Shown one piece after another: positions 7,170 through 38,912 of a DNA stretch of 64,000 nt. The translations under genes and the position numbers were made by a program. Numbering within the stretch: the first letter of the stretch is position 1; each line of letters begins with the position of its first letter. Below the pieces are notes generated by a model, which saw only the letters and a program-made list of their open reading frames with translations, made no database searches and had not been told where the DNA came from. Source of the DNA: Candidatus Omnitrophota bacterium (lineage in GTDB: Bacteria; Omnitrophota; Gorgyraeia; Velamenicoccales; JABMQK01); the NCBI GenBank assembly GCA_028711115.1, contig JAQTSV010000001.1:1304928-1368927 (forward strand), read 5' to 3'.

Positions 7170-8399
7170 TTATTTTAGGTAATGGCCTAATTTGGTTTTT
7201 TTTGTCTCAAGGTATTTCTTATTTATCTTATTTGCGGGAATATCCAAAGGTATGCGCTCGGAAATATGCAAGCCATAGCCTTCCAATCCCACAACTTTTT
7301 TAGGATTATTGGTAAGTAACCTAATATTTTTTATTCCTAAATCCGCCAATATCTGGGCGCCGATGCCATAATCCCTTAAATCAGCCTCAAAACCCAACGC
7401 CTCATTCGCCTCGACGGTATCAAGGCCTTTGTCCTGCAAATTATAAGCGCGTATTTTATTGATAAGTCCTATCCCTCTTCCTTCCTGGCTCATATATAGA
7501 ATAACTCCCTTGCCTTCCTTACCGATTAATTCCAAAGCCTTTTTTAACTGCGTGCCGCAATCGCATCTCAATGAACCAAAAACATCTCCGGTCAAACACT
7601 CCGAATGCACCCTTACCATAACGGGTTTCTGTTCTTTTCTTATCTCCTCTTCATTTCCTAAAACTAAAGCGATATGATTAAGTTTATCTATGGAAGATTC
7701 ATAAACCAGCATCTGGAATTCGCCGAATTCAGTGGGAAGCGATGCCCTGGTAATCCTTTTTACAAGCATTTCTTTTTTGCGGCGGAATTCAATCAAATCC
7801 TCTATGGAACAAATCTTTAAATTGTGATTTTGGGAAAATTCCAGTAATTGCGGCAACCTAGACATCGAACCATCTTCATTCATAATTTCACAAATTACGC
7901 CAGCAGGATAAAGCCCTGCCAGTTTCATAAAGTCTACCGCCGCCTCTGTATGGCCTGCCCTGACTAAAACTCCGCCGTTTCTTGATTTTAACGGAAAGAT
8001 GTGCCCGGGGCGGATTAAATCATCGGGCTTTGTCTGCGGATTTATCAAAACTTCCACTGTGCGAGCCCGGTCAAAAGCGGAAATTCCCGTGGTAATGCCG
8101 CTGCGCGCATCTACGGAAATCATCCAGGCAGTTGCGTAGGGGTCATAACTGTTGGCGCTCTCCTGAAAATATGGCGACACCATGGGGAAAAGGTTCAATT
8201 CCTTTAATCTTTCTTCCTCCATAGGCACGCATATAAGGCCTCTGGCGTATTTTGCCATAAAATTTATATGCTCCGGCGTGGCGGATGACGCGGGTATAAT
8301 TAAATCACCTTCGTTTTCGCGGTCTTCGTCATCGACTACGATAACCATTTTACCGGCTTTAAGCTCATCTATTATTTCCTGAATGCTGCTAAATTTCAT
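7170..8399 (-). CDS. ribBA: Bifunctional 3,4-dihydroxy-2-butanone-4-phosphate synthase / GTP cyclohydrolase II
   Basis: [11 protein letters not shown] (DHBP synthase) and [21 protein letters not shown] (GCH II zinc site). AAGGAGA Shine-Dalgarno upstream. Confidence 0.95.
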
Positions 8400-8467: not shown

Positions 8468-8632
8468 CTTTCTGCCCTCTCCCATCTAGACTTTTCGCCA
8501 AGTAAACTTAGCGACTCCGTTTTTCACGGAGACTATTGGCCCAAGAATTACACTTGGTCAATCCGCCGTTACAACTTTGGCGGACTCGTAGGCTTTCACT
8601 ACCAGTCAGGAATCACACCTGATCCCGAAGGT
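8468..8632 (-). promoter_or_regulatory. FMN riboswitch (RFN element) aptamer
   Basis: The minus strand reads CUUCGGGAUCAGGUGUGAUUCCUGACUGGUAGU...AGCCUACGAGUC...GGAUUGACCAAGUGUAAUUCUUGGGCCAAUAGU...AGUCUAGAUGGGAGAGG. This matches the conserved RFN core blocks and lies upstream of ribBA. Confidence 0.9.
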
Positions 8633-8660
8633 TATTTTAATTTATACCAAAAGATTATAT

Positions 8661-8736: not shown

Positions 8737-9207
8737 ATGCTGCTAAAAAAAGTTGCTGAACTTTTGCTAAAAAAGAAACTGACGATTGCCGTCGCTGAAT
8801 CCTGTACTGGCGGCCTCACATCACACTCCCTAACAAACATAAACGGCAGTTCCAAATACTTTAAATTAGGCCTCGTCCTTTATTCCAACCAGGCAAAATC
8901 CGGAATCCTTAAGATTAAGACCAGTGAAATAAAAAAACATGGCGCTGTTTCAGAAAGAATCGCCTTCCTTATGGCAAAAAAAGTAAGAGAACTGGCAAAG
9001 ACCGATATAGGAATTTCTTCGACCGGCATAGCCGGGCCAAGCGGCGGCAGCAGAAAAAAACCTGTGGGCACTGTGTTTATCGGCATAGCCTGCAAAAATT
9101 GCGTGGTTGTCAGAAAATTCAACTTCAAAGGAACGCGCCTCCAGATAAAAAATAAAACCAAAAACAAAACCCTCCTTCTAATCAAAACATGCCTGGCGAA
9201 TCAATAA
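8737..9207 (+). CDS. pncC: CinA C-terminal domain / nicotinamide-nucleotide amidohydrolase PncC
   Basis: AVAESCTGG motif; 156 aa; only the CinA C-terminal domain is present. Confidence 0.85.
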   Translation: MLLKKVAELLLKKKLTIAVAESCTGGLTSHSLTNINGSSKYFKLGLVLYSNQAKSGILKIKTSEIKKHGAVSERIAFLMAKKVRELAKTDIGISSTGIAGPSGGSRKKPVGTVFIGIACKNCVVVRKFNFKGTRLQIKNKTKNKTLLLIKTCLANQ

Positions 9208-9767
9208 GAACTTTCATAGCATTAGAAATCGAAGATAAAATAAAAGACAAGATTTCCGAAATTCAGGAGACGATTAAGCGCGCCAATTTAATAAAGGCAA
9301 GCTGGGTGGCAAAAAACAACCTGCATCTTACTTTAAAGTTTTTAGGAGACACTAAATTAAAAGACGTGGAAAAAATAAAAGAAAAGATTAAAAATTCCTC
9401 CCAAGGCGAACAATCCATAAAATGTAACCTAAACAAAATAGGTGTATTCCCTAACGAAAGATCTCCCAGGGTTATATGGGCGGGCATTGAAGGCGGCTAT
9501 GAGCAAATTGCAGGATTGGTTAATAAACTCGAGACAAACATTTCTGAACTTGGTTTCAAGAAGGAAAAAAGGGATTTTAAGACTCATATCACCATATGCA
9601 GGCCCAGGCAAATATTAAATCCCCAGCAATTCGGTTTATTGTTGGAAGAAATCAATAAAAATTTCGAACCTCAGGAATTTGTTATAAATGAACTGGTTTT
9701 CTTCGAAAGCAAACTCACGCCGCAAGGCTCTATCTATACGCCTTTAGCCAGTTACCACCTGGAATAA
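9189..9767 (+). CDS. thpR: RNA 2',3'-cyclic phosphodiesterase (2'-5' RNA ligase family, ThpR/LigT)
   Basis: Two HxT motifs (HLTLKF and HITICR) at the expected spacing for the 2H phosphoesterase fold. Confidence 0.85.
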   Translation: MPGESIRTFIALEIEDKIKDKISEIQETIKRANLIKASWVAKNNLHLTLKFLGDTKLKDVEKIKEKIKNSSQGEQSIKCNLNKIGVFPNERSPRVIWAGIEGGYEQIAGLVNKLETNISELGFKKEKRDFKTHITICRPRQILNPQQFGLLLEEINKNFEPQEFVINELVFFESKLTPQGSIYTPLASYHLE

Positions 9768-10413: not shown

Positions 10414-11535
10414 TTATTCTATGGCAAATACCCTGTCTATCTCCTGCTGGGTAGTAAGATTTTCCTTCAGCAGCTTATCTATAGAACCCTGAAATGGCAC
10501 AATATTATTCCCGGCTGCTGCCCTTAATTCATCTGCGGAGGCCTTATGCAAAATCAGGTCTCTCATTTTATCATTAATGACAACTAATTCAAATATTCCC
10601 GTTCTTTTCTTAAATCCTGTATTCATACACTGAGAACAACCCTTGCCTTTGCATATCTTACAAATTAATCTTATTAACCTCTGTGCCAAAACGCCTGTAA
10701 GGGCCGAGGAAATAAAATACGGTTCTACCTCCATATCCAACAATCTTATAATTGTATGAATAGCGTCTCTTCCGTGAAGAGTGGAAAATACCATAGAACC
10801 CGCTAATGCCGCCTGCAAAGCCGTGCGCGCTGTCTCGCCGTCCCTGATTTCTCCTACGGCGATTATGTCGGGGTCCTGGCGCATAATTGCGCGTAGGCCA
10901 CTGACAAAAGTCATGCCAAATTCATGCTCAACCTGAATCTGATTTATGCCTACGAATTTGCATTCTACAGGATCTTCTATTGTGCAGATATTTTCCTGAC
11001 GGGAATATACCTGCTGCAGAGTGGAATAAAGAGTCGTGGTCTTACCTGAACCGGTAGGACCGGAAATAATAACAAAACCCTCGGGCCTGGTGAATACGCT
11101 CCTGTAAACTTCTACGAATTCTTTATCCATGCCCAGCTCTTCCAAACTTAAGCAATAACGGCTCCTGTCCATAATACGCATAACTATCTTTTCGCCAATA
11201 ATTGTAGGCATGCTTGCCACACGCACATCCACATCGGCTCCGCTTAAGGTGGTAAAGGTAAAGCGGCCGTCCTGCTCTCTTCTTTTCTTGGTAGGATCCA
11301 ATCCGCTCATTATCTTTATGGCATTTGTCAAACTATCCATCTGGGGATCGCTCTTTACCACTTTATCTACGTCTCTAAGCACGCCGTCAATGCGGAATCT
11401 TACCACAAATTCTTTCTGACCTTCAGTGATAAAAGGCTCCCAATGGATATCAGTGGCGCGTTCACGGATGGCCTTGTTGGTTATTTCGTTAATAAAATGC
11501 AGGGACTGGTCTTTAAATTCGGGCTTTTTCTCCAC
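10414..11535 (-). CDS. Type II secretion / type IV pilus assembly ATPase core (GspE/PilB family) lacking the N-terminal domain
   Basis: Walker A GPTGSGKTTT, Asp box, Walker B, His box and the tetracysteine motif CKICKGKGCSQC. Confidence 0.85.
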   Translation of the reverse strand: MEKKPEFKDQSLHFINEITNKAIRERATDIHWEPFITEGQKEFVVRFRIDGVLRDVDKVVKSDPQMDSLTNAIKIMSGLDPTKKRREQDGRFTFTTLSGADVDVRVASMPTIIGEKIVMRIMDRSRYCLSLEELGMDKEFVEVYRSVFTRPEGFVIISGPTGSGKTTTLYSTLQQVYSRQENICTIEDPVECKFVGINQIQVEHEFGMTFVSGLRAIMRQDPDIIAVGEIRDGETARTALQAALAGSMVFSTLHGRDAIHTIIRLLDMEVEPYFISSALTGVLAQRLIRLICKICKGKGCSQCMNTGFKKRTGIFELVVINDKMRDLILHKASADELRAAAGNNIVPFQGSIDKLLKENLTTQQEIDRVFAIE

Positions 11536-29618: not shown

Positions 29619-29742
29619 TGGCGCCGAATTACATTAATTCGGCATCCGCCATTGAATTTATTAATGAAATTCTTAAGGTTACGGCGCTGGGCTACGCTAG
29701 CCCAGCATCCGTTAAAACTTTCATTAATGAAAGTTTTAACGG
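29619..29742 (-). repeat. tRNA-trailer hairpin array R1 (four REP-like hairpins, 3' of tRNA-Ser GCT)
   Basis: Four hairpins are present. (1) GCGCCGAATTA-CAT-TAATTCGGCATCCGC. (2) A degenerate CCGCCATTGAATT..AATGAAATTC unit. (3) GCTGGGCTA-CGC-TAGCCCAGC. (4) CCGTTAAAACTTTCATTAATGAAAGTTTTAACGG, which overlaps the tRNA 3' end. Confidence 0.8.
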
Positions 29743-29828
29743 AGAGGTCGGGATTCGAACCCGAGAGTCCAGTTGCCCAGACTAACTGCTTAGCAGGCAG
29801 CTGCTATCAGCCACTCAGCCACCTCTCC
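29740..29828 (-). tRNA. tRNA-Ser (anticodon GCT), no encoded CCA
   Basis: GGAGAGGTGGCTGAGTGGCTGATAGCAGCTGCCTGCTAAGCAGT..., a long variable arm, then GGGTTCGAATCCCGACCTCTCCG. Confidence 0.9.
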
Positions 29829-29850
29829 AAAATTTACTGAGTGATTTTTG

Positions 29851-29890
29851 GATCTCGAGTCCCGCCACTTATCTTGGCGGACGAAAGATC
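29851..29890 (-). repeat. Solo CCGCCA/TGGCGG hairpin between tadA and tRNA-Ser(GCT)
   Basis: GTCCCGCCA-CTTATCT-TGGCGGAC (29859-29882) nested in a GATCT...AGATC outer stem. The stem family is the same as hairpin B of the tRNA 5' cassettes. Confidence 0.7.
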
Positions 29891-29901
29891 TTAAACGCGA
29901 A

Positions 29902-30381
29902 TTAATTATGGGTAGCTACCTTCTGCCGTTTTCTCAGAAAAAACTCTTTTATCAACAAAGAACACTCTTTTTCCAAAACGCCTGTTTTTACCTGCAGGCG
30001 ATGATTAAGTTTTTTATTATTTATCAAATTTATAACAGAACCACAGGCGCCGGTTTTAGGATCAACTGCGCCGTATACAATCTTTTTTATGCGGGAGAGC
30101 ACCAATGCGCCCGCACACATACTACACGGCTCAATTGTAACATAAATTGTACAGTCTAACAACCATTTATTACGTAAAAAGTTGCAGGCCTCTGTCAAAA
30201 CTAACATCTCTGCGTGCGCCGTGGGATCTTTAAGCATCTCTACCTGATTATACGCCCTGGCAATGATTTTATTTTTATGCACAACCACTGCCCCGACGGG
30301 AACTTCATCCAGGCTAAATGCCTTTTGGGCCTCTCTCATCGCTTCCTTCATGAAAAATGAATCGTTTTTGAGTCCTAGCAT
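29902..30381 (-). CDS. tadA: tRNA-specific adenosine deaminase TadA
   Basis: HAEMLVL and PCSMCAGAL zinc motifs; 159 aa. Confidence 0.9.
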   Translation of the reverse strand: MLGLKNDSFFMKEAMREAQKAFSLDEVPVGAVVVHKNKIIARAYNQVEMLKDPTAHAEMLVLTEACNFLRNKWLLDCTIYVTIEPCSMCAGALVLSRIKKIVYGAVDPKTGACGSVINLINNKKLNHRLQVKTGVLEKECSLLIKEFFLRKRQKVATHN

Positions 30382-30432
30382 TGCATATTTACCTTATCTA
30401 AACTTATTTTTTGTCTGTTTCTAAATTAAAAA

Positions 30433-30506
30433 TGCGCCTGGCTGGACTCGAACCAGCAACAACTAGTTCCGTAGACTAGTGCTCTATCCAATTGAGCCAC
30501 AGGCGC
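30433..30506 (-). tRNA. tRNA-Arg (anticodon ACG), no encoded CCA
   Basis: GCGCCTGTGGCTCAATTGGATAGAGCACTAGTCTACGGAACTAG...GGTTCGAGTCCAGCCAGGCGCA. Confidence 0.9.
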
Positions 30507-30553
30507 ATCTATTAAATCAACTTTTATTCTATTTTTATCTTTAATCAAAATAA

Positions 30554-30820
30554 TTATAGAAAAATCAGGCTCTTAATATTGTGTAACGAAAGTAAAACAA
30601 ACAATATCCCGCATGCCAATCTATGTTTAAAAATCCAATCATTTAAGAAATTGATCTTTTCTTCCAGCACAGTAAGGAATACAGCGGTAAGCCCTAATTC
30701 TGTATTCGCTATCTCCTCCAGGCGCAGATACAGCTCCAAAGATAACAAAAAGATTAAACTGAAAATAAGAGCCACAAAGGAACTGCCCAAACAAATAAAT
30801 TTGATGATAATTATTTCCAT
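30554..30820 (-). CDS. Hypothetical small membrane protein (88 aa)
   Basis: Two to three predicted TM helices. There is no Shine-Dalgarno, so the call rests on ORF length and hydrophobicity alone. Confidence 0.35.
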   Translation of the reverse strand: MEIIIIKFICLGSSFVALIFSLIFLLSLELYLRLEEIANTELGLTAVFLTVLEEKINFLNDWIFKHRLACGILFVLLSLHNIKSLIFL

Positions 30821-30885
30821 AATTGCAGAGAGTAAATTAGCATACTTTAGTGATTAAAACAAGGAAGAAAACAAAAAAAGCAATA

Positions 30886-30970
30886 ACTGCGCTAGGCTAC
30901 ATTAGCCCAGTATCCGAACGGTCCCGAAACACATTGTTTCGGCATCCGTCATTAATTTTATTTTTGAATG
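30886..30970 (-). repeat. Orphan tRNA-trailer hairpin array R2 (no adjacent tRNA)
   Basis: GCGCTAGGCTA-CAT-TAGCCCAGTATCCG, then CCCGAAACA-CAT-TGTTTCGGCATCCG, then a decayed TCATTAAT unit. The module order matches R3, but no tRNA follows. Confidence 0.75.
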
Positions 30971-30998
30971 AACTACGTACAACATTTGAATAACCATT

Positions 30999-31388
30999 TT
31001 AAGGCTGTACGTATCTTCTGGCATTTTTTTTAATACACGCTATAAGCTCTCCTACAGTTACTGTCTTTGCTAAAAGCGAATATCCCCTAGTAAAACTTGC
31101 TTGGGAGCTGGCCTCTTCTTCTCTTACTATTGCAGTCAAAAATACAACAGGGGTATCTTTTATGCTCTTATCATCCCTTATTAGAGAAATAACGTCGCTA
31201 CCATCCATCCCCGGCATTACTATATCGAGTAATATCAAATCTGGTTTTATCTCTATAGCTAACCTGATACCGTCTTCCCCATTTGTTGCTATATATACCT
31301 CAAACTCACCTGTCTGTTCTATATTTTTCTTAACCAGCTTACAAAAATTCTCCTCGTCATCAATAATTAATACTTTCTTTTTATACAT
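30999..31388 (-). CDS. Stand-alone response regulator receiver domain (CheY-like)
   Basis: DD pair (IIDDEE), phospho-acceptor Asp in LILLDIVMPGMDG, and conserved T and K positions; 129 aa. Confidence 0.9.
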   Translation of the reverse strand: MYKKKVLIIDDEENFCKLVKKNIEQTGEFEVYIATNGEDGIRLAIEIKPDLILLDIVMPGMDGSDVISLIRDDKSIKDTPVVFLTAIVREEEASSQASFTRGYSLLAKTVTVGELIACIKKNARRYVQP

Positions 31389-31402
31389 TTACTCCCTCCT
31401 TA

Positions 31403-32851
31403 TTACTCGGGAATTTTTAAAGTAATAATTACCTTAGTTCCTTTTTTCACCTGGCTTTTTACCTCAATTAGCCCTTTGTGCATAATAATAATATTTCGGC
31501 TTACAGATAACCCCAGCCCAGTCCCTTTGCCTGGTTCTTTTGTGGTAAAGAAAGGATCGAATATCCTTTTAAGGTTTTCTTCAGAAATACCCATGCCTGT
31601 ATCCTCAATTTCAATAACAACGACATTCTCTCCAGCCTTAAAAGAATCATCTGGCCTTCCATCTATGCCTTTTCTTGTTTCTTCCAGTTGCTTAACAAAG
31701 CTGCGAATAGTAAGTTTTCCTGACTCAGGCATTGCATGTATTGCATTCATAAACAGATTAATAAATACCTGCGTTAGTTTATTTTTATCTACTAAAACCT
31801 TTGGCAGATCTTTTTGAATTTCCTTGACTACCTTGATATTCTTTAATTCTGTTTTTATCAAATTCAAAGAATTCTCAATAATAGGGTCAATATATTCTGG
31901 GTGCAATTCAAGCTTCGTAGCTCTAGAAAAATCTAGAAGCGAGATTACAATCTTGTCTGCCCTTTGCGCGTTCTCCTTAACTATAGATAAAGCCTCATGC
32001 GGCTCTTTTGCCTCCGGAGATATTATTTGCTCCAAATAAGCAACTCCCTGCATTATGGTTCCTAGAGGATTCCTCATCTCATGGGCTACGCTGCTTGCCA
32101 ATTGACCGATGGCCTTGAGCTTCTCCGATTGAATTAACTTATCTTGCATCTCCTTTAATTCATCGTAGGCTATTTTTAATTCTACTGCCCTCTTAGAAAC
32201 CTCCTCGTAAAGTCGGGCGTTCTGCAGAGCAATCGCACCCATACGGCCAATATTCATAGCTACTGAGACTTCTCGCTGCGTGAAAGTCCCGGGTGTTTTT
32301 TTATCGCATATGTGCAATACGCCTAGAACTTCATCCTTGTATATAAGCGGAACACTGATAAATGCTTTTTGCAAAAAATACTCTTCTTTTTTTAACTTGC
32401 TCAAATAATAATCCTGCGCCAAATCGGACACCACTAATTTTTCTCTGTTACGCATCACAAGTCCAGATATGCTATCTTTACCTATGATCAAAGGTCCCTT
32501 GTTGCGATCGTAATACCACCCGATTGCGCAGGCCAACGTAAACTTTTCTGTACTTTTATTCCAAGCAAGAAACACAGTGCGCTCAATCGGCAAGAAATTA
32601 TTAGCAGCCTCGGTAATACACTGCGCTACACCTTGAAGACTAAAAGCCGAAACCAGCTTCTCATTGAACTTAAACAGAAAATCTAATTCTGCCTCATACC
32701 ACATTTTATCTTCTAAATATGACGGAACCTGCGGCGGGAATTTGTGAAACGGATCCCGTGGAAATTTTTTAAGAAGAGACTTCTTCCGTTGATACACAAT
32801 GGCTATCGCGTAAACAAACACGAAACCAATCAAAGTAAATACAATAATCAT
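31403..32851 (-). CDS. Sensor histidine kinase with an N-terminal TM helix and a GAF domain
   Basis: H-box SSVAHEMRNPLGTI, N-box NLFMNAIHAM, G1 DTGMGI and G2 GTGLGLSV. A GAF-like region precedes DHp. Confidence 0.9.
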   Translation of the reverse strand: MIIVFTLIGFVFVYAIAIVYQRKKSLLKKFPRDPFHKFPPQVPSYLEDKMWYEAELDFLFKFNEKLVSAFSLQGVAQCITEAANNFLPIERTVFLAWNKSTEKFTLACAIGWYYDRNKGPLIIGKDSISGLVMRNREKLVVSDLAQDYYLSKLKKEEYFLQKAFISVPLIYKDEVLGVLHICDKKTPGTFTQREVSVAMNIGRMGAIALQNARLYEEVSKRAVELKIAYDELKEMQDKLIQSEKLKAIGQLASSVAHEMRNPLGTIMQGVAYLEQIISPEAKEPHEALSIVKENAQRADKIVISLLDFSRATKLELHPEYIDPIIENSLNLIKTELKNIKVVKEIQKDLPKVLVDKNKLTQVFINLFMNAIHAMPESGKLTIRSFVKQLEETRKGIDGRPDDSFKAGENVVVIEIEDTGMGISEENLKRIFDPFFTTKEPGKGTGLGLSVSRNIIIMHKGLIEVKSQVKKGTKVIITLKIPE

Positions 32852-32863
32852 AAGAATAAGATT

Positions 32864-32958
32864 AACGGCGCTGGGCTACATTAGCCCGGCATCCGAACGG
32901 CGCCGAAACACATTGTTTCGGCATCCGTTAAGTTTTTCATTAATGAAAAACTTAACGG
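32864..32958 (-). repeat. tRNA-trailer hairpin array R3 (3' of tRNA-Ser GGA)
   Basis: The minus strand reads CCGTTAAGTTTTTCATTAATGAAAAACTTAACGG, then ATGCCGAAACA-ATG-TGTTTCGGCGCCG, then TTCGGATGCCGGGCTA-ATG-TAGCCCAGCGCCG. It ends 12 nt before the kinase ATG. Confidence 0.8.
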
Positions 32959-33042
32959 AGAGGCAGGGATTCGAACCCTGGGTAGCCTTACGACTACACA
33001 TGCTCTCCAGGCATGCCGATTAAACCGCTCTCGCACCTCTCC
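32956..33042 (-). tRNA. tRNA-Ser (anticodon GGA), no encoded CCA
   Basis: GGAGAGGTGCGAGAGCGGTTTAATCGGCATGCCTGGAGAGCATG..., a long variable arm, then GGGTTCGAATCCCTGCCTCTCCG. Confidence 0.9.
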
Positions 33043-33137
33043 AAAAATTCAATTACACAGAACAACCGACCGCCATTAAAGATTCGGCGGTCGTCCGCCA
33101 ACTTATTAGTGGCGGACGCTCTCGCACCTCTCCAAAA
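33026..33137 (-). repeat. tRNA 5' cassette E1: a 70-nt two-hairpin element flanked by a 21-nt direct duplication of the tRNA-Ser(GGA) 5' end
   Basis: 33026-33046 and 33117-33137 are both cgctctcgcacctctccaaaa, which is tRNA positions +17 to -4. The interior 33047-33116 carries the hairpins GACCGCC..GGCGGTC and GTCCGCCA..TGGCGGAC. Confidence 0.85.
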
Positions 33138-33179
33138 TTTCTCGCTCTTACTAATCAAAAACAAAGAACAATTTATATG

Positions 33180-34541
33180 TCAATCTCCCAAAAGATGTTC
33201 TTTGGTCAGATTTAATTTATTCAAAGCCGCCTCTCTATCTCTGTGATAAAGACGGCAGAAACTGGAAACGTCGTCTATCTTATTCATTTCTTTTTCTTTC
33301 AATATCTTTAGCAGCTTGACTCTGATTTTAAACTCGTCTATAAAATTCTTGGCCGGAAAACCTCCCAGCTTACAAACCTTATCCCTGAACACACTGCTGG
33401 GCTGGCGCTCTATAAAATTTTCTTTCTCGCAGTTGTAGCTCCATACCGGCGAAAGCAAAACCACTTTCTGTTCCAAGCCGGCTGTCTCGGCTATTTCATC
33501 GACAACTCTGAAAAAACTATTTCTTATCTGATACTTCTTGACAGTAACGAATACGTCTATCAAATTAACCAGTGTCTCGGGTATGTTCATCGGCTCATTC
33601 TGAAGACGAATGATGGCCTCTCTGGCTGAATTAGCATGAATCGTACCCATACAATATTTTCCGATATTCATAGCTGTCATCATATCCTGGGCCTCACTGC
33701 CTCTTACCTCTCCCACAATAATGCGCTCCGGACGCATCCTTAAACTATTCTTCACTAAATCTGCCAGGGTGATACCTTCGTCGCATTCTAATCTTGACCA
33801 GCTATCTTCCAATTTTGTATTGAGTTCCAATGTGTCTTCGATTACAACCAGCCGTTCATTATCGGGGATAAAACTAATAAGAGCATTCATCAGCGTGGTC
33901 TTTCCGGAACCAGGCGCACCCAATATCAACATATTTGCAGGCCTGACGCCCATTCCTTCCACATACAACCACAGCTGCGCTGCTAACTCATAAGATAAAG
34001 ACCTAAAGTTCACCAAATCAATTATGCTCAGCGGGCTCTCTTTTATTTTTGTAATGGTAATCTGCGGACCAAACGGAGACTGCACAATATTCACCCTGCC
34101 TGATATATTGGGCAGCTCTAAATTATTGACCATCTTAACGTGTTTGCGCCCGGAGAAAACCAATAATTTCTTCACAAAAACATCGAGCTCTTTCTGCGTA
34201 TTGAATTTTTTATCTGTTTTCACCAATCCGCGGTATGTATGATGGACATAAATAGGATTAAGTGCATTTATAATAATATCTTCCGTGTTGGGATCGACTA
34301 AAAGTTCATCCACAGTGCCAAAGGAAAAAAATTCCTTTAAAAAACTTTTTCTGCCTTCGTCTGTATTCAATTCACTTACGGTCTTACCTTGAAAGAAATT
34401 ATCTTTGGTAGTATTACCGTAAGTATCGGCGAGAACATTTATGACAATATTATCTTTTTCTTCCTGGGTCTGCATTATATTAATTTTGCCAAATAACTGT
34501 TCAAGAACTTTGGCCTGAATATCCAATTGGAATTTATTCAT
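33180..34541 (-). CDS. Type II/IV secretion-family ATPase (FlaI/TadA/VirB11-like), orphan
   Basis: Walker A GAPGSGKTT, VIEDTLEL, GEVRGSEA and GTIHANS (His box). The N-terminal domain has the LVDPNTEDIIIN motif typical of FlaI/TadA-type ATPases. Confidence 0.85.
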   Translation of the reverse strand: MNKFQLDIQAKVLEQLFGKINIMQTQEEKDNIVINVLADTYGNTTKDNFFQGKTVSELNTDEGRKSFLKEFFSFGTVDELLVDPNTEDIIINALNPIYVHHTYRGLVKTDKKFNTQKELDVFVKKLLVFSGRKHVKMVNNLELPNISGRVNIVQSPFGPQITITKIKESPLSIIDLVNFRSLSYELAAQLWLYVEGMGVRPANMLILGAPGSGKTTLMNALISFIPDNERLVVIEDTLELNTKLEDSWSRLECDEGITLADLVKNSLRMRPERIIVGEVRGSEAQDMMTAMNIGKYCMGTIHANSAREAIIRLQNEPMNIPETLVNLIDVFVTVKKYQIRNSFFRVVDEIAETAGLEQKVVLLSPVWSYNCEKENFIERQPSSVFRDKVCKLGGFPAKNFIDEFKIRVKLLKILKEKEMNKIDDVSSFCRLYHRDREAALNKLNLTKEHLLGD

Positions 34542-34583
34542 AAACTCTCCTTTTGTATTATTCTGAAATTGTTAAACTGATCA

Positions 34584-34646
34584 GCGGATGCCGAATTACA
34601 TTAATTCGGCATCCGCCATTGAATTCATTAATGAATTCAATGGCGG
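34584..34646 (-). repeat. tRNA-trailer hairpin array R4 (3' of tRNA-Ser CGA)
   Basis: GCGGATGCCGAATT-ACATT-AATTCGGCATCCGC (34584-34616) overlaps the perfect 34-nt palindrome CCGCCATTGAATTCATTAATGAATTCAATGGCGG (34613-34646) by 4 nt. The palindrome includes the tRNA CCGCCA 3' end. Confidence 0.85.
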
Positions 34647-34728
34647 AAGGAGCAGGATTCGAACCTGCGAGGCCTTGCGACCTGGACGCTTTCGAGGCGT
34701 CTGGATTCAACCGCTCTCCCATCCTTCC
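34641..34728 (-). tRNA. tRNA-Ser (anticodon CGA), CCA encoded
   Basis: GGAAGGATGGGAGAGCGGTTGAATCCAGACGCCTCGAAAGCGTC..., a long variable arm, then GGTTCGAATCCTGCTCCTTCCGCCA. Confidence 0.9.
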
Positions 34729-34748
34729 CTAATAAATATATATAATTC

Positions 34749-34838
34749 TGGCGGAGGCGGAAGGATTCGAACCCTCGGTGAACTTACGCCCACAACGGTT
34801 TTCAAGACCGCCGCATTCAACCGCTCTGCCACGCCTCC
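34749..34838 (-). tRNA. tRNA-Ser (anticodon TGA), CCA encoded
   Basis: GGAGGCGTGGCAGAGCGGTTGAATGCGGCGGTCTTGAAAACCGT..., a long variable arm, then GGGTTCGAATCCTTCCGCCTCCGCCA. Confidence 0.9.
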
Positions 34839-34931
34839 AATAATTCAATTTTACAGAACAACCGACCGCCATTAAAAATTCGGCGGTCGTCCGCCAACTT
34901 ATTAGTGGCGGACGCTCTGCCACGCCTCCAA
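34822..34931 (-). repeat. tRNA 5' cassette E2: a 72-nt two-hairpin element flanked by a 19-nt direct duplication of the tRNA-Ser(TGA) 5' end
   Basis: 34822-34840 and 34913-34931 are both cgctctgccacgcctccaa. The interior matches E1 at 67 of 70 positions. Confidence 0.85.
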
Positions 34932-34937
34932 AATTTC

Positions 34938-35612
34938 TTATTTCATAACAAACAGCTGCTTAAAAATAGCTGTATGGGTATCGATAAAGAATTTACCGCC
35001 GCTTTTAATAATATTTACAAAAGAAAAATCCTTTAGCATTACATTAAAGAAAACAGAAATTAAGACAATCTCAAACATATAAACTAAAAACAGCGTAAAG
35101 AAATAATTTCCTTTCAGGGTGTCTGTGGTCTCCTCCTTCATATAGGCCGCAGTTAAAATCAAATGCATTACAGCAGTAAAAGAAATCCAAAATATAAAAT
35201 ATCCGATAATAACTTCATAGGCGAAATTTGCCTTAAAAATAAAATAGAGACCAAAAGTTAATACTGTGTAGAACGGTACGGCACAGGATAATAAATCCCT
35301 GAGAGGCGCGATAAAACCAAACATGCCACTGATAAGCCTCTGGCCAAATTTATAAATGGTATTCGGCTCATAAATAAACATATGCAGAATTAAATAGGCG
35401 GCTATGGCTAAGACAAAATTATTTATAATATCCTGGCTTTGGTTGGAAAATTCCTGTGAGAAACTGACCGTCAAACCCCAGACTAACGGCAATAATAAAA
35501 TACTTAAGGTGAATTTAACTACTGATATTACCGTCTCAAATAAACTCCCCCTGGCCCTGCCTCCGGAACCGCTATTAATTTCTAACCCTTCATCCAATTC
35601 TTGTTTTGCCAT
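34938..35612 (-). CDS. Hypothetical polytopic membrane protein (224 aa)
   Basis: About 6 TM helices. It overlaps the serS 3' end by 23 nt. No recognised family. Confidence 0.5.
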   Translation of the reverse strand: MAKQELDEGLEINSGSGGRARGSLFETVISVVKFTLSILLLPLVWGLTVSFSQEFSNQSQDIINNFVLAIAAYLILHMFIYEPNTIYKFGQRLISGMFGFIAPLRDLLSCAVPFYTVLTFGLYFIFKANFAYEVIIGYFIFWISFTAVMHLILTAAYMKEETTDTLKGNYFFTLFLVYMFEIVLISVFFNVMLKDFSFVNIIKSGGKFFIDTHTAIFKQLFVMK

Positions 35613-36858
35613 CGAAATACCCCCTTAAAACTTCCGGTATCTGAATTGTTCCGTCTTTATCCTGATAATTTTCGATTATGGCAATGACCGTGCGCGCAAG
35701 CGCAACGCCCGAGCCATTCAACGTGTGCACATAATTTAATTTTTTTGTATCTTTCGTTCTGTAGCGGATATTCGCCCGCCTTGCCTGAAAATCGCAGAAG
35801 TTCGAACAGCTGGAAACTTCCAGCCACTTGTCCAGCCCCGGCGCGTATGCCTCCAAATCATAGCATTTGCTCGCCGAGAAACTCAAATCTCCCGTAGAAA
35901 GCATATTCACACGGTAAGGCAGATTCAATAATTGTAAAACTTCCTCCGCGTTAGCCACCAATTTTTCCAATTCATCATAGGAAGTCTCGGGCTTTACAAA
36001 TTTAACCATTTCCACTTTATCGAACTGATGCACGCGCATAAGGCCTTTTGTGTCTTTTCCGTAAGAGCCCGCTTCCCGCCTAAAACACGGCGTATAAGCG
36101 GTGTAATAAACCGGAAGATTTTCTTCTTCCAATACGTCGTCGCGGTGAATATTGGTAACCGGAACTTCCGCCGTGGGAATCAAGAATAAATCGTCATCTT
36201 TTAATTTATACATATCCTCTTCTAATTTAGGCAATTGACCGGTACCAGTCATACTCTGACGGTTAACCAAAGCAGGCGCCCAGATTTCCCTGTATCCGTG
36301 TTTTTTGGTGTGCAAATCCAGCATAAAATCAATCAATGCGCGTTGGAGTTTGGCGCCGTCGCCTTTAAAAATGACAAAATTCGAACCGGTTATCTTTGCC
36401 GCGCGCGGCAAATCCATAATATCTAAATGCTCGCAAATTTCCATATGAGATTTGGGCTTAAAATCAAATTCGCGGGCTTTTCCCCAGCTGCGCACAATTT
36501 TATTCGCCGTGGCATCGCCGACAGGAATACTTTCATGCGGAATATTTGGTATATTTAACAAAATTTTATCAAGTTCTGTATCGATTTCTTTTTCGCCTTT
36601 TTCCAATTCGTCGATTTCTTCGGCGATGCTCTTCATTTCTTTTATTTTTTTCTTGGGATCTTTTTTTGCTTTTAGAAGCGCGGTAATTTCGTCATTGGCT
36701 AAATTTTTCTGCCTTCTTAATTCTTCAAGTTTTAGCAAAATTTCCCTGCGCTTTCTGTCGAGCGATGTGAATCCACCTAAATCCAATTTTATCCCACGGT
36801 TTTTTATTGCGGCTTTTACTAAATCAAAATTTTCTCTTATAAATTTTATGTCTAACAT
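35590..36858 (-). CDS. serS: Seryl-tRNA synthetase
   Basis: An N-terminal coiled-coil tRNA-binding arm and a class II catalytic core (motif 2 region FRREAGSYGKDTKGLMRVHQFDKVE). Confidence 0.97.
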   Translation of the reverse strand: MLDIKFIRENFDLVKAAIKNRGIKLDLGGFTSLDRKRREILLKLEELRRQKNLANDEITALLKAKKDPKKKIKEMKSIAEEIDELEKGEKEIDTELDKILLNIPNIPHESIPVGDATANKIVRSWGKAREFDFKPKSHMEICEHLDIMDLPRAAKITGSNFVIFKGDGAKLQRALIDFMLDLHTKKHGYREIWAPALVNRQSMTGTGQLPKLEEDMYKLKDDDLFLIPTAEVPVTNIHRDDVLEEENLPVYYTAYTPCFRREAGSYGKDTKGLMRVHQFDKVEMVKFVKPETSYDELEKLVANAEEVLQLLNLPYRVNMLSTGDLSFSASKCYDLEAYAPGLDKWLEVSSCSNFCDFQARRANIRYRTKDTKKLNYVHTLNGSGVALARTVIAIIENYQDKDGTIQIPEVLRGYFDGKTRIG

Positions 36859-36872
36859 AAATTATTCCTTTC

Positions 36873-38330
36873 CTAGCCTTTTATCACTCCGAGCGGCCTC
36901 ATCTTGCAGACCTTCCTGGAAATTCCGGCGCGCTCAACCACATTTACCACATCATTTATATTCTTGTAAGCAGCAGGCGCTTCTTCTACAAGCGTTTCCC
37001 TGCTTGAGGCTTTAACTGTTATTCCTTTTGATTCTAATTCCTCTAATAAACTTATGGCGTTAAACGACCTTGTGGCTGCGGAACGCGATTTTAATCTGCC
37101 TGCGCCATGGCATGTGGAATAAAAAGTTTCTTTTGCCTTCTCTGTTCCGACAAGTAAATATGAATTCCTTCCCATATCTCCGGGAATTATTACCGGCTGT
37201 CCGTAATTTTTATATTTTTCTGGCAAAGCCGGATGATTCGGGCCCAGCGCCCTGGTCGCGCCTTTTCTATGAACGCAAACTTTCTTTTTCTTTCCGTTTA
37301 CTTCACAAGTCTCAATTTTGGCAATGTTATGGGCTACGTCATAAACCAAAGACATCCCCATATTCTGCCAGGATTTGTTAAACACGCGCTCAAAAGCCAG
37401 GCGCGTCAAATGCATAAGGCACTGGCGGTTTGCCCAGGCGTAATTTGCCGCCGCGCGCATGGCAGAAAGATACTCTTTTCCTTCTTCTGATTCTACAGGA
37501 GCGCAAGCCAATTGTCTATCAGGAACATTAATATTGTATTTGGATAAACAATGAATCATCTTCTTTACGTAATCCTCGCAAACCTGATAACCCAAGCCGC
37601 GCGAACCTGAGTGAATCATTACAGTAATCTGTCCTTCTGCCACGCCGAAAACATTCGCTGTTTCTTTATCGTAAATTTCTTCTACAACCTGGACTTCTAA
37701 AAAATGATTTCCCGAACCCAAAGTGCCGGATTGCGCCTTGCCGCGCTCATACGCCCTGTCTGAAACAGCGTCCGTAGCCGCGCCGCTGATTGCGCCTTCT
37801 TCTTCGCAATAAGTCAAATCATCCTGCGTGCCATAACCTTGCTCCACTGCCCAACGCGCGCCTTTTATTAAGATTTCTTTCTCTTCTCTTGCAGAAACTT
37901 TTATGTCGCCTTTGGAACCTAATCCCGAAGGAACATCATTAAATAAAACATAAACCAAATCTTTTATCTTATTTTTTATTTCGCTAAATAAAAGGTTCGT
38001 GCGCACCAAACGCACGCCGCAATTTATGTCAAAACCAACCCCGCCGGGAGAAATCACACCATTGTTTTCAATGTCTGTCGCCGCCACGCCGCCGATGGGA
38101 AAACCATATCCCCAGTGTATGTCCGGCATGGCCAAAGAATTAGAAACAATCCCCGGAAGAAACGCGACATTGGCAACCTGCTCCGCGGCTTTGTCGTGGC
38201 GAATATCAGCCAGGAGTTTTTCGTCGGCGTAAATTACGCCGTCGGTGCGCATGCCCGGTTTATAACTTTTTGGTATACGCCACCTGACATCATCTATTCT
38301 TTCCAACGGGCCTTGCCAAAGATCTGCCAT
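36873..38330 (-). CDS. rtcB: RNA-splicing ligase RtcB
   Basis: Conserved GVGFDINCGVR, GSGNHF, HSGSRGLG and HGAGR motifs; 485 aa. Confidence 0.95.
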   Translation of the reverse strand: MADLWQGPLERIDDVRWRIPKSYKPGMRTDGVIYADEKLLADIRHDKAAEQVANVAFLPGIVSNSLAMPDIHWGYGFPIGGVAATDIENNGVISPGGVGFDINCGVRLVRTNLLFSEIKNKIKDLVYVLFNDVPSGLGSKGDIKVSAREEKEILIKGARWAVEQGYGTQDDLTYCEEEGAISGAATDAVSDRAYERGKAQSGTLGSGNHFLEVQVVEEIYDKETANVFGVAEGQITVMIHSGSRGLGYQVCEDYVKKMIHCLSKYNINVPDRQLACAPVESEEGKEYLSAMRAAANYAWANRQCLMHLTRLAFERVFNKSWQNMGMSLVYDVAHNIAKIETCEVNGKKKKVCVHRKGATRALGPNHPALPEKYKNYGQPVIIPGDMGRNSYLLVGTEKAKETFYSTCHGAGRLKSRSAATRSFNAISLLEELESKGITVKASSRETLVEEAPAAYKNINDVVNVVERAGISRKVCKMRPLGVIKG

Positions 38331-38338
38331 ATAAAATC

Positions 38339-38755
38339 CTATGTGTCAAAAATAATTCTTGCCTCTAAGCCATCCTGAGTCTCTTTAATTTCCAGCTCGT
38401 GATAAGTTGCGGCTTTTACCTCGGATAAAATTTTATGCTTTGCCGAATCCAGGTTTTCTCCGTGGACTTCGGCGTTTAATTCTTTATCGCTAATTTTATT
38501 TATCTTAAATTCTTTGGGAATGAAATTGCGGGCTGAAAATTGGAATATCAGTTCGTTTAACCAGGAAATCAAAAGCTCTTCCCTGTTATCGTCTTCTAAA
38601 TTAACGCTTATTTTATCGCTTGCCTGGACCTTATTTAAATCCGTGATTAAACTAAACAAACCTTTTGCGGCATTTATAAAAAGTTCTTTTGAGTCTTTGG
38701 CGTAAATCTTAAGGCCTATGTCCGCCGTGTGCTCAAAGGTCTCGAACTTTTTCAT
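38339..38755 (-). CDS. Archease (RtcB activator)
   Basis: N-terminal FEHTADIGLKIYA and the correct length (138 aa). Lies directly upstream of rtcB. Confidence 0.85.
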   Translation of the reverse strand: MKKFETFEHTADIGLKIYAKDSKELFINAAKGLFSLITDLNKVQASDKISVNLEDDNREELLISWLNELIFQFSARNFIPKEFKINKISDKELNAEVHGENLDSAKHKILSEVKAATYHELEIKETQDGLEARIIFDT

Positions 38756-38767
38756 ATAAGGAATTTA

Positions 38768-38840
38768 TGGGCCATGTAGGAGTCGAACCTACGACCTTGA
38801 CATTAAGAGTGTCCTGCTCTACCGATTGAGCTAATGGCCC
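38768..38840 (-). tRNA. tRNA-Lys (anticodon CTT), no encoded CCA
   Basis: GGGCCATTAGCTCAATCGGTAGAGCAGGACACTCTTAATGTCAAGGTCGTAGGTTCGACTCCTACATGGCCCA. Confidence 0.9.
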
Positions 38841-38912
38841 GATTTTTATCTATACGCCATAAGCGAATCCGCCGATGTTTAGTGGCGGAGAGCTAATGAC
38901 ACGGAATTTTTA
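38828..38912 (-). repeat. tRNA 5' cassette E3 (decayed): a single CCGCC hairpin flanked by a diverged duplication of the tRNA-Lys 5' end
   Basis: Proximal gagctaatggcccgattttta (38828-38848) compared with distal gagctaatgacacggaattttta (38890-38912). The interior holds TCCGCC-ACTAAACATC-GGCGGA. Confidence 0.7.

Follow-up and report, generated by a model that had tools for sequence, protein, structure and literature searches.

We analysed a stretch of 64,000 nucleotides (nt) of contig JAQTSV010000001.1 from a Candidatus Omnitrophota bacterium (hereafter the window), in which a 70-nt hairpin cassette separates the complete gene for tRNA-Ser(GGA) from a duplicate of that gene's own 5′ end. Read along the minus strand, a secretion-type ATPase gene ends in its stop codon, after which come a 46-nt spacer, the 5′ stub of the tRNA gene, the cassette, and then TTTT and the complete tRNA-Ser(GGA) (Table 1). 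The stub comprises TTTT and tRNA positions 1-17 (GGAGAGGTGCGAGAGCG) and forms one half of a 21-nt direct repeat, TTTTGGAGAGGTGCGAGAGCG, which spans tRNA positions -4 to +17 and is exact in both places. A search of the window that allowed up to three mismatches gave no further match, and none is expected by chance (0 in 100 shuffles). The two identical blocks are thus as the original prediction, made from the sequence of the window, had described them. That prediction also raised the possibility of an assembly artefact. This can be discounted, because the locus is identical in GCA_028716625.1 (L126; 100% over 7362 nt; L-numbers denote loci or contigs compared with the window) and an independent Logan unitig (L127) crosses the junction between the stub and the first hairpin. 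An Rfam search of the whole window at the gathering threshold returned nine tRNAs and skipped tRNA-Ser(GGA), which scored 51.8 bits in a local run; the omission is a filter effect of the tool and not a property of the gene.

The cassette has the 70-nt sequence originally given and consists of two hairpins, H1 and H2, followed by an AT-rich tail. Both hairpins had been described as 8 bp long; H2 does have 8 bp, but H1 only 7. H2 is similar to H1 read in reverse complement (38/49), and the two together make a 50-nt quasi-palindrome. Considered as terminal inverted repeats, they show this inverted likeness, but each stem is self-complementary in any case and the 20-nt tail falls outside the hairpins. 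An alternative middle hairpin with a U-rich run (AUCUUUAAU) scores as terminator-like in both tRNA-Ser copies of the cassette (see below). The hairpins lie directly behind upstream genes and may act there as a terminator or 3′-end protector. The first four nucleotides of the tail, GTTG, equal positions 18-21 of tRNA-Ser(UGA); such a continuation after H1-H2 would fit a simple insertion into a tRNA-Ser-like target. Other sources for the cassette were tried and rejected. Similarity of the tail to the native leader upstream of the stub is weak at the GGA locus (p=0.023) and not significant at the UGA locus, and similarity to the 3′ end of an integrase gene is not significant (p 0.1-0.9). A stub running on to the anticodon loop past the insert would rest only on GTTG, or on TTGAAT (p=0.044), and derivation of H1-H2 from a tRNA-Ser 3′ end plus trailer is weak (p 0.03-0.04), with a trailer-hairpin profile matching neither hairpin. 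Marginal similarities of the cassette to trailers, native leaders and the D-loop (p 0.02-0.05) were not counted as evidence.

A blastn search of the window located a second copy of the cassette, identical to the first at 67/70 positions (96%), and none elsewhere. The two loci are 1.8 kb apart. The second copy abuts the 5′ end of an intact tRNA-Ser(UGA) and is preceded by a dead stub, TT plus GGAGGCGTGGCAGAGCG, in which GGAGGCGTGGCAGAGCG (34913-34929) equals the first 17 nt of the adjacent gene. The UGA and GGA stubs differ at positions 5, 6, 10 and 11, and each matches its own gene exactly. Since locus-specific repeats surround an insert that is 96% identical, the duplicated DNA derives from the target and not from the insert. 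The shared 70 nt are bounded by blocks common to both tRNAs, AGAGCG on the left and TTTTGGAG on the right. A third instance lies upstream of tRNA-Lys(CUU). Here a diverged stub of leader plus positions 1-13 (TAAAAATTCC and GTGTCATTAGCTC, against TAAAAATC and GGGCCATTAGCTC in the gene) gives a local alignment score of 25, reached in 0/100 shuffles. It is followed directly by an H1-like hairpin, TCCGCCACTAAACATCGGCGGA, which has the 11-mer TCCGCCACTAA in common with H1, and then by a degenerate remainder ending in TAAAAATC. The tRNA-Lys(CUU) instance is a decayed, older third copy. A stub with an H1-type hairpin is therefore seen at 3/10 of the tRNA genes in the window. The cassette search proposed in the original prediction has thus yielded a second copy at a tRNA 5′ end, with its own locus-specific duplication, and a decayed third.

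Syntenic loci in relatives were reached via ATPase homologues. tRNA-Ser genes lacking both stub and cassette were found in L001 and L128 (81% ATPase identity), L125 (84%), L131 (78%) and L004 (72%), which supplies the empty sites that had been sought in relatives. The tRNA-Ser(UGA) gene of L001 begins 6 nt past the upstream stop codon, that is, at the position of the stub in the window. The empty sites imply that the cassette is a derived, lineage-specific insertion and not a conserved leader. None of the relatives examined carries tandem tRNA-Ser copies at these sites; two full copies there had been named as the finding that would point to decay of a tandem duplicate, and this reading is accordingly not supported. 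The lack of conservation and of tandems therefore disposes of a selected leader and, at the GGA and Lys loci, of a decayed tandem.

The leader reading, also one of the original options, holds that the stub vies with the genuine 5′ strand for pairing with the 3′ acceptor strand, thereby tuning tRNA maturation or serving as a decoy. At the GGA locus the minimum-free-energy fold does pair the stub with the 3′ acceptor strand, replacing the genuine 5′ strand, and both Ser stubs are identical to their genes. The cassettes themselves, however, differ at only 3/70 positions, so zero changes in 17-21 nt is the neutral expectation. The arrangement is absent from all relatives examined, close ones included, and the Lys stub has decayed. 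RNA folds revealed no stub-cassette pairing conserved between the two tRNA-Ser loci, and no Rfam match to a leader RNA family or a group I core was obtained at the loci examined. Compared with riboswitch or T-box-type leaders, the arrangement neither matches a known family nor is conserved in relatives. We consider a selected leader very improbable, and the stub itself is probably without function.

A decayed tandem would make the stub and the TCCGCCA that begins H1 the two ends of an upstream tRNA copy that has lost positions 18-69, with the hairpins as its former trailer. TCCGCCA does correspond to a tRNA-Ser 3′ end (UCC-G-CCA), and native Ser trailers pair TCCGCCA with a downstream TGGCGGA. 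Moreover, tRNA-Ser(UGA) lacks the trailer hairpins of the other tRNA-Ser genes, and tandem tRNA copies occur in L257 (see below). Yet the 3′ ends of tRNA-Ser(GGA) and tRNA-Lys are not TCCGCCA, and the Lys locus still has the TCCGCCA hairpin. The trailer similarity is weak (p about 0.03-0.04), the trailer-hairpin profile misses H1 and H2, and no relative has the tandem. The reading is largely refuted by the GGA and Lys loci and we give it very little credence.

Viral contigs were scanned with five cassette-derived patterns. The H1-derived pattern gave 20 matches, 19 of which are chance. The remaining match, contig L257, is the only real one in the viral collection, those of the other patterns being chance and away from tRNAs. 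A scan of genome contigs with CCGCCN{9,13}GGCGGACGACCGCCG gave chance matches in high-GC genomes only. L257 (63-352, minus strand) carries an intact tRNA-Pro(UGG) and, 47 nt downstream, a second copy that is interrupted twice, at 10/11 and 26/27, in the order CGGGGCGTGG / TCCGCCACTAAAGCGTTGGCGGACTAAAAAT(CG) / CTCAGCTTGGTAGAGCG / a 59-61-nt two-hairpin unit / TCTGC... The first insert is a hairpin of H1 type, and the remainder at the window's Lys locus ends as this insert does. Insert 2 is a two-hairpin unit homologous to H1-H2; its hairpin B, which lay outside the search pattern, is identical to H2 at 20/26 positions, loop included, and ends in TGGCGGTCG. Insert 2 follows GAGCG and has CG on both sides, and the window is alike: GAG-CG-[...GGCGGT]-CG-GTTG. 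Only 0-2 nt are repeated at the L257 inserts. The homology establishes H1-H2 as a discrete unit that occurs outside this genome and in tRNA-gene DNA.

The exons of the second tRNA-Pro copy are intact; joined in silico they yield a perfect tRNA-Pro(UGG), whose anticodon stem is better than that of the first copy. One might regard the inserts as intron-like and removed from RNA by an endonuclease together with RtcB and archease; this would make the interrupted tRNA-Pro a working gene, and the stub, cassette and repeat of the window could be handled as an intervening sequence of 91 nt. Genes for RtcB and archease lie beside the tRNA-Lys locus, and the RNA fold would let the stub substitute for the genuine 5′ acceptor strand. 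In the window, however, splicing is unnecessary because a complete, uninterrupted tRNA follows the insert. No bulge-helix-bulge was recognised by eye and no group I core was matched in Rfam. L257 keeps an intact first copy, so that its second copy may be a young pseudogene, and RtcB, as a repair enzyme, is widespread among bacteria. We regard this reading as most unlikely. Scarcely more probable is a wider version, in which H1/H2 would be a mobile intron-like family of bacterial and phage tRNA genes that homes to D-arm DNA and is either spliced out, as the intact tRNA-Pro exons of L257 would suggest, or tolerated through a regenerating duplication. If true, it would be a bacterial counterpart of the archaeal mobile non-canonical tRNA introns.

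5′ tRNA fragments upstream of intact genes, with other inserts, were also found in relatives, at tRNA-Ser in L124, L002/L003, L148 and L155 and at tRNA-Arg in L004, L131 and L156. In L124, L002 and L003 a GC-rich hairpin cluster (TCC...GGA) stands at stub positions 17-21, after which the stub sequence resumes (for example AACGGGCA, positions 22-29). Because of this resumption past the insert, these inserts have no long flanking repeat. The stubs of L124 and L002 carry a D-arm allele different from that of the gene. A tRNA-Ser(GGA)-type gene in L148 (1019-1373) is split: some 300 nt, which hold a hairpin and the whole of a tRNA-Ser(UGA), part positions 1-21 from the variable arm, the T-arm and the 3′ end of the acceptor. 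The arrangement looks like the replacement of one tRNA gene by another. Upstream of tRNA-Arg(ACG), L004 (9895-10080) and L131 (2290-2408) have serial units that each consist of AATGCGCCCG and a hairpin; within them GCGCCCG is paired to a CTGGCGC farther downstream in a minihelix-like form, and the stems of the two contigs differ by compensatory changes.

The explanation we prefer, and hold only tentatively, is composite: H1-H2 would be a small palindromic element that seeks out tRNA genes, and the long repeats would arise through re-copying of the 5′ part of the target. A non-coding palindromic element, of the general kind of repetitive extragenic palindromic (REP) sequences and their doublets (REPINs) or of MITEs (miniature transposable elements with inverted repeats), would enter tRNA-gene DNA, typically just after GAGCG in the part encoding the D-arm, with CG on both sides. 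If a dispensable tRNA copy were hit, the insert could stay inside the gene, as in a stub or the second tRNA-Pro copy. If a single-copy essential tRNA were hit, only events that re-copied its 5′ part downstream of the insert, beginning with 4-10 nt of leader and ending where the insertion took place, would survive. The product would be a dead 5′ stub, the hairpin cassette, a new leader and a complete tRNA that RNase P could still release whole. The association with tRNA genes would then be due to selection, which would keep plain inserts in dispensable copies and regenerating events in single-copy tRNAs. The second tRNA-Ser copy may have arisen by spread between the paralogous loci through the same short-homology copying, with which the blocks common to both tRNAs at the borders of the shared 70 nt would agree. 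The original proposal of a miniature mobile element targeting the D-arm is thus the best survivor, given the further copies, the empty sites and L257; the long duplication, however, is probably no fixed target-site duplication of the element.

Relative to the insertion point, gene sequence resumes at -21 in both tRNA-Ser genes of the window, at -13 to -23 in its tRNA-Lys, at 0 to -2 in L257, at 0 to -1 in L124 and L003, and at +4 in L002. Because the resumption point varies among family members, we prefer to a fixed staggered cut, which would not produce such a spread, a restart or a switch of template in the course of insertion or repair. The 21-nt repeat, which had been taken for a target duplication, is by the same range of values probably not one of fixed length. 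A one-step alternative is a 66-70-nt miniature transposon whose enzyme is encoded elsewhere and, in the D-arm region, makes cuts in the two target strands that are separated by ~21 bp, or two turns of the helix; filling in the gaps would then leave the repeat as a genuine target-site duplication. It would account for perfect locus-specific repeats round the same insert at both tRNA-Ser loci and for repeats of similar length despite different tRNA parts (Ser 17 plus 4 of leader, Lys 13 plus about 10), and the likeness of H2 to the reverse complement of H1 recalls inverted-repeat ends. We nevertheless think it unlikely, as the homologous inserts in L257 repeat only 0-2 nt and the stub inserts of relatives repeat none, the 20-nt tail lies outside the inverted hairpins, and no such enzyme was found in the window. 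To our knowledge no bacterial transposase family makes a constant ~21-bp duplication; casposases make 14-15 bp duplications and those of the IS1634 group are long but variable.

Other routes to the repeats were rejected because each predicts donor-type bases at positions 5, 6, 10 or 11 in one of the repeat copies, and none are present. These are site-specific recombination of one mini-element between both tRNA-Ser genes, Campbell-type integration, gene conversion by strand annealing that starts at a break within the repeat, and an IS200-like unit with its end at the second GAGCG.

Several points count against the composite explanation. The left junctions show no microhomology for copy-choice from a native tRNA 3′ end, and the 16-20-nt tail between H2 and the new leader lacks an explanation. 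The repeats in the window are similar in length (21 nt at GGA, 19-21 nt at UGA, about 22-23 nt at Lys), as they would also be with an enzyme of fixed stagger. Only a single homologue, L257, is found outside this genome. The selection filter is a purely logical argument. Finally, no transposase, integrase, reverse transcriptase or Cas1 was detected among the open reading frames of at least 90 aa in the window (Pfam, tblastn), in line with the original remark that no transposase or integrase is visible, and no HUH/RAYT domain or TnpA gene was found in the 64 kb (Pfam).

The second original option invoked a Cas1/casposase-like or integrase-like event. Nothing indicates Cas1. For integrases the support is circumstantial: 5′ fragments of tRNA genes are indeed displaced by them in this phylum. 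A family of Omnitrophota tyrosine integrases (P0121; 7602 matches at E<1e-20) lies directly upstream of, or overlaps, tRNA 5′ ends on the same strand. In L001 and L163 the 3′ end of the integrase gene overlaps the 5′ end of the tRNA-Lys orthologous to that of the window. In L163 an exact copy of the leader and positions 1-38 lies 9.8 kb upstream, with a terminase and other element genes between, and the L164 element, at tRNA-Thr, is arranged alike; these elements are 8-10 kb long. A 21-nt motif, ATGGACACTWTTTGGACACCA, stands on both attachment (att) arms at fixed distances, 121 nt past attL and in the 3′ end of the integrase gene, where its translation is MDT(F/I)WTP and the tRNA begins 75-95 nt farther on. 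The motif is thus a candidate arm-type site for binding and would at the same time be coding sequence. A search of the viral contigs with a single integrase query found no relative; an integrase alignment recovered only distant prophage integrases of classical layout, in which the tRNA lies on the other strand and turns its 3′ end toward the element.

On this basis an integrase origin of the stubs is plausible in principle. The stub could be an attL and the gene-side repeat an attR, left by site-specific integration on the 5′ side of the tRNA gene through a D-loop crossover, the 70 nt being an eroded element and the two tRNA-Ser loci having later been homogenised by gene conversion. P0121 integrases insert on the 5′ side and leave 5′ fragments, L163 being the orthologue of the window's own Lys locus, and the different D-arm allele of the L124 and L002 stubs is what an element-borne 5′ half would give. 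There is also precedent: the arg2 islands of Klebsiella pneumoniae are reported to integrate upstream, with repeats over the acceptor 5′ strand, D-stem and D-loop (10.1101/2020.11.02.365908), and the Islander method allows for 5′ fragments upstream (PMC4383910). As the latter's criteria specify, the window has a fragment of the tRNA gene end that is oriented like the gene and lies on the proper side, a 5′ fragment being upstream (PMC4383910). The interval, however, is only 70 nt, with no integrase or cargo in it, and tblastn and Pfam find no integrase in the window. A fixed-arm element cannot give two-sided locus-specific repeats at tRNAs that differ at 4/17 positions, and extra conversion steps would be needed; no common element-borne arm is seen at the two targets, which show the 4/17 differences between loci and 0 within them. 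The geometry of P0121 is absent too, as the window repeats end at positions 13-21 and not 38 and ATGGACACTWTTTGGACACCA is missing. The intact integrase elements show no H1-like hairpin, the cassette tail has no significant similarity to integrase 3′ ends, and the window's Lys leaders are unlike the att leaders of L163. We therefore judge an eroded integrase element distinctly unlikely.

Table 1 Features of the tRNA-Ser and tRNA-Lys loci in the window and of the integrase elements used for comparison
Feature	Sequence	Position	Strand	Remarks
Secretion-type ATPase gene	window	33180-34541	-	upstream of the GGA stub
5′ stub ("decoy") of tRNA-Ser(GGA)	window	33117-33137	-	dead; TTTT + positions 1-17
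70-nt cassette, first copy	window	33047-33116	-	between the two repeats
Hairpin H1	window	33094-33116	-	TCCGCCA-CTAATAAGT-TGGCGGA
Hairpin H2	window	33067-33093	-	CGACCGCC-GAATCTTTAAT-GGCGGTCG
Cassette tail	window	33047-33066	-	GTTGTTCTGTGTAATTGAAT, 20 nt
Gene-side copy of 21-nt repeat	window	33026-33046	-	exact repeat; leader TTTT + positions 1-17
tRNA-Ser(GGA)	window	32956-33042	-	intact, putatively regenerated 3′ of insert; Rfam, ARAGORN
5′ stub of tRNA-Ser(UGA)	window	34913-34931	-	dead; identical to 34822-34840
70-nt cassette, second copy	window	34843-34912	-	blastn
H1, second copy	window	34890-34912	-
H2, second copy	window	34863-34889	-
Tail, second copy	window	34843-34862	-
tRNA-Ser(UGA)	window	34752-34838	-	intact
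tRNA-Ser(CGA)	window	34644-34728	-	20 nt after tRNA-Ser(UGA)
Diverged 5′ stub of tRNA-Lys(CUU)	window	38890-38912	-
H1-like hairpin at Lys locus	window	38868-38889	-	directly after stub
Degenerate remainder at Lys locus	window	38841-38867	-
tRNA-Lys(CUU)	window	38768-38840	-
Integrase, tRNA-Lys	L163	10001-11152
Displaced 5′ fragment	L163	1281-1323
ATGGACACTWTTTGGACACCA sites	L163	1444-1464, 10985-11005
Integrase, tRNA-Thr	L164	10001-11158
Displaced 5′ fragment	L164	2816-2879
ATGGACACTWTTTGGACACCA site	L164	3000-3020
Integrase, tRNA-Ala	L166	3496-4654		24 nt upstream of tRNA-Ala
ATGGACACTWTTTGGACACCA site	L166	4486-4506

Among described systems, REP/REPIN sequences (also known as bacterial interspersed mosaic elements) and the palindromic MITEs of IS200/IS605 type are, like H1-H2, short, non-coding imperfect palindromes. 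The resemblance extends to an inverted doublet that forms one long hairpin, to stems that are conserved while loops vary between copies, to insertion by a short specific sequence (GAGCG) with 0 or 2 nt duplicated (L257), and to a possible role as terminators or mRNA stabilisers. Unlike REP sequences, the copies known here are all in tRNA-gene DNA and not scattered between genes. There are three in 64 kb, each flanked by 13-21-nt target repeats; the many extragenic copies and the RAYT or TnpA expected of a REP system are not seen within the window. Several copies and empty sites in relatives are also what a MITE would show. MITE copies would in addition share a duplication of constant length; the repeats are 21, 19-21 and about 13-23 nt in the window but 0-2 nt in L257.

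Casposons are elements of several kb that encode Cas1 and are bordered by terminal inverted repeats; some of them use tRNA genes, and their duplications, at tRNA 3′ ends, measure 14-15 bp. The unusually long target duplication is the point of likeness; neither a 14-15 bp duplication nor casposon-type terminal inverted repeats nor Cas1 were seen in the window. Archaeal non-canonical tRNA introns, which spread among tRNA genes, include short structured inserts in the D-arm, with related ones at different positions and in different tRNAs, for which 10/11 and 26/27 in L257 are a parallel. They differ in that the host here is a bacterium or phage, no bulge-helix-bulge was recognised and the window gene is regenerated rather than interrupted; only the second copy of L257 has an insert interrupting an otherwise intact gene.

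The P0121 elements share with the window the phylum, the Lys locus and a 5′ fragment upstream of a regenerated gene, but their repeat reaches position 38, in the anticodon loop, they span 8-10 kb and they carry arm motifs, none of which applies to the window. The arg2 and Islander fragments likewise repeat the acceptor 5′ strand, D-stem and D-loop ahead of an intact gene. Theirs, however, are kilobase intervals with an integrase, whereas here 41-70 nt without any gene lie between locus-specific repeats. The original prediction had not recognised the arrangement as a described element. 5′ fragments and D-loop repeats are in fact known from integrase islands; for the 70-nt hairpin insert we found no description in the literature.

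We note some further features of the surrounding tRNA genes. The four tRNA-Ser genes all share the strand of serS and are no more than 6 kb away from it (29740-36858, 36873-38840), and in L001 tRNA-Ser(UGA) stands 6 nt past the stop of the gene following serS. RtcB and archease are encoded between serS and tRNA-Lys(CUU), and a gene for a LigT-type 2′,5′ RNA ligase is at 9189-9767. Each tRNA-Ser has a 3′ end that also forms the 5′ arm of a long perfect palindrome, such as TCCGTTAAGTTTTTCATT/AATGAAAAACTTAACGGA (32924-32959, 34612-34647, about 29705-29743), and its own trailer can therefore sequester the tRNA 3′ terminus. A family of ~30-nt hairpins of the form CGGATGCC-stem-AATG-stem-GGCGCCG, often in tandem, occurs at 32864-32927, 30886-30948, 29619-29711 and 34587-34615 and also in L001, L002, L125, L145, L146, L156 and L166. 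Its members are mostly within about 150 nt 3′ of tRNA genes and on the tRNA strand; that at 30886-30948 is not beside a tRNA. Flanks and loop are conserved, with compensatory stem changes, across relatives down to about 52% ATPase identity. A conserved GC hairpin followed by CTCGRGATCCAAA precedes tRNA-Ser(GCU) in the window (29862-29880) and in L004 (about 10640-10670), and the same motif recurs upstream of tRNA-Ser(UGA) in L128 (about 1550-1585). The 7-mer GAATTAT is found on both sides of tRNA-Ser(UGA), at ~-10 to -4 and directly after CCA (34830-34850, 34740-34751); with a rough p of about 0.03 this may be chance. An FMN riboswitch (8470-8636, 72.8 bits) upstream of ribBA (7170-8399) is ordinary.

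Eukaryotes are well known to have small non-coding elements that specifically invade tRNA genes, and so are archaea, where the elements are introns; we know of no bacterial example, and the literature searches gave none. The abundant 5′-side integrase family mirrors the classical 3′-side rule and is relevant to island-finding software and to the annotation of Omnitrophota genomes. Stubs of the kind described here can confuse tRNA and promoter annotation and break short-read assemblies. If H1-H2 is mobile, it would account for stray 5′ tRNA stubs such as are repeatedly met with upstream of tRNA genes in Omnitrophota, and it would show an essential single-copy gene surviving an insertion by the re-copying of its front.

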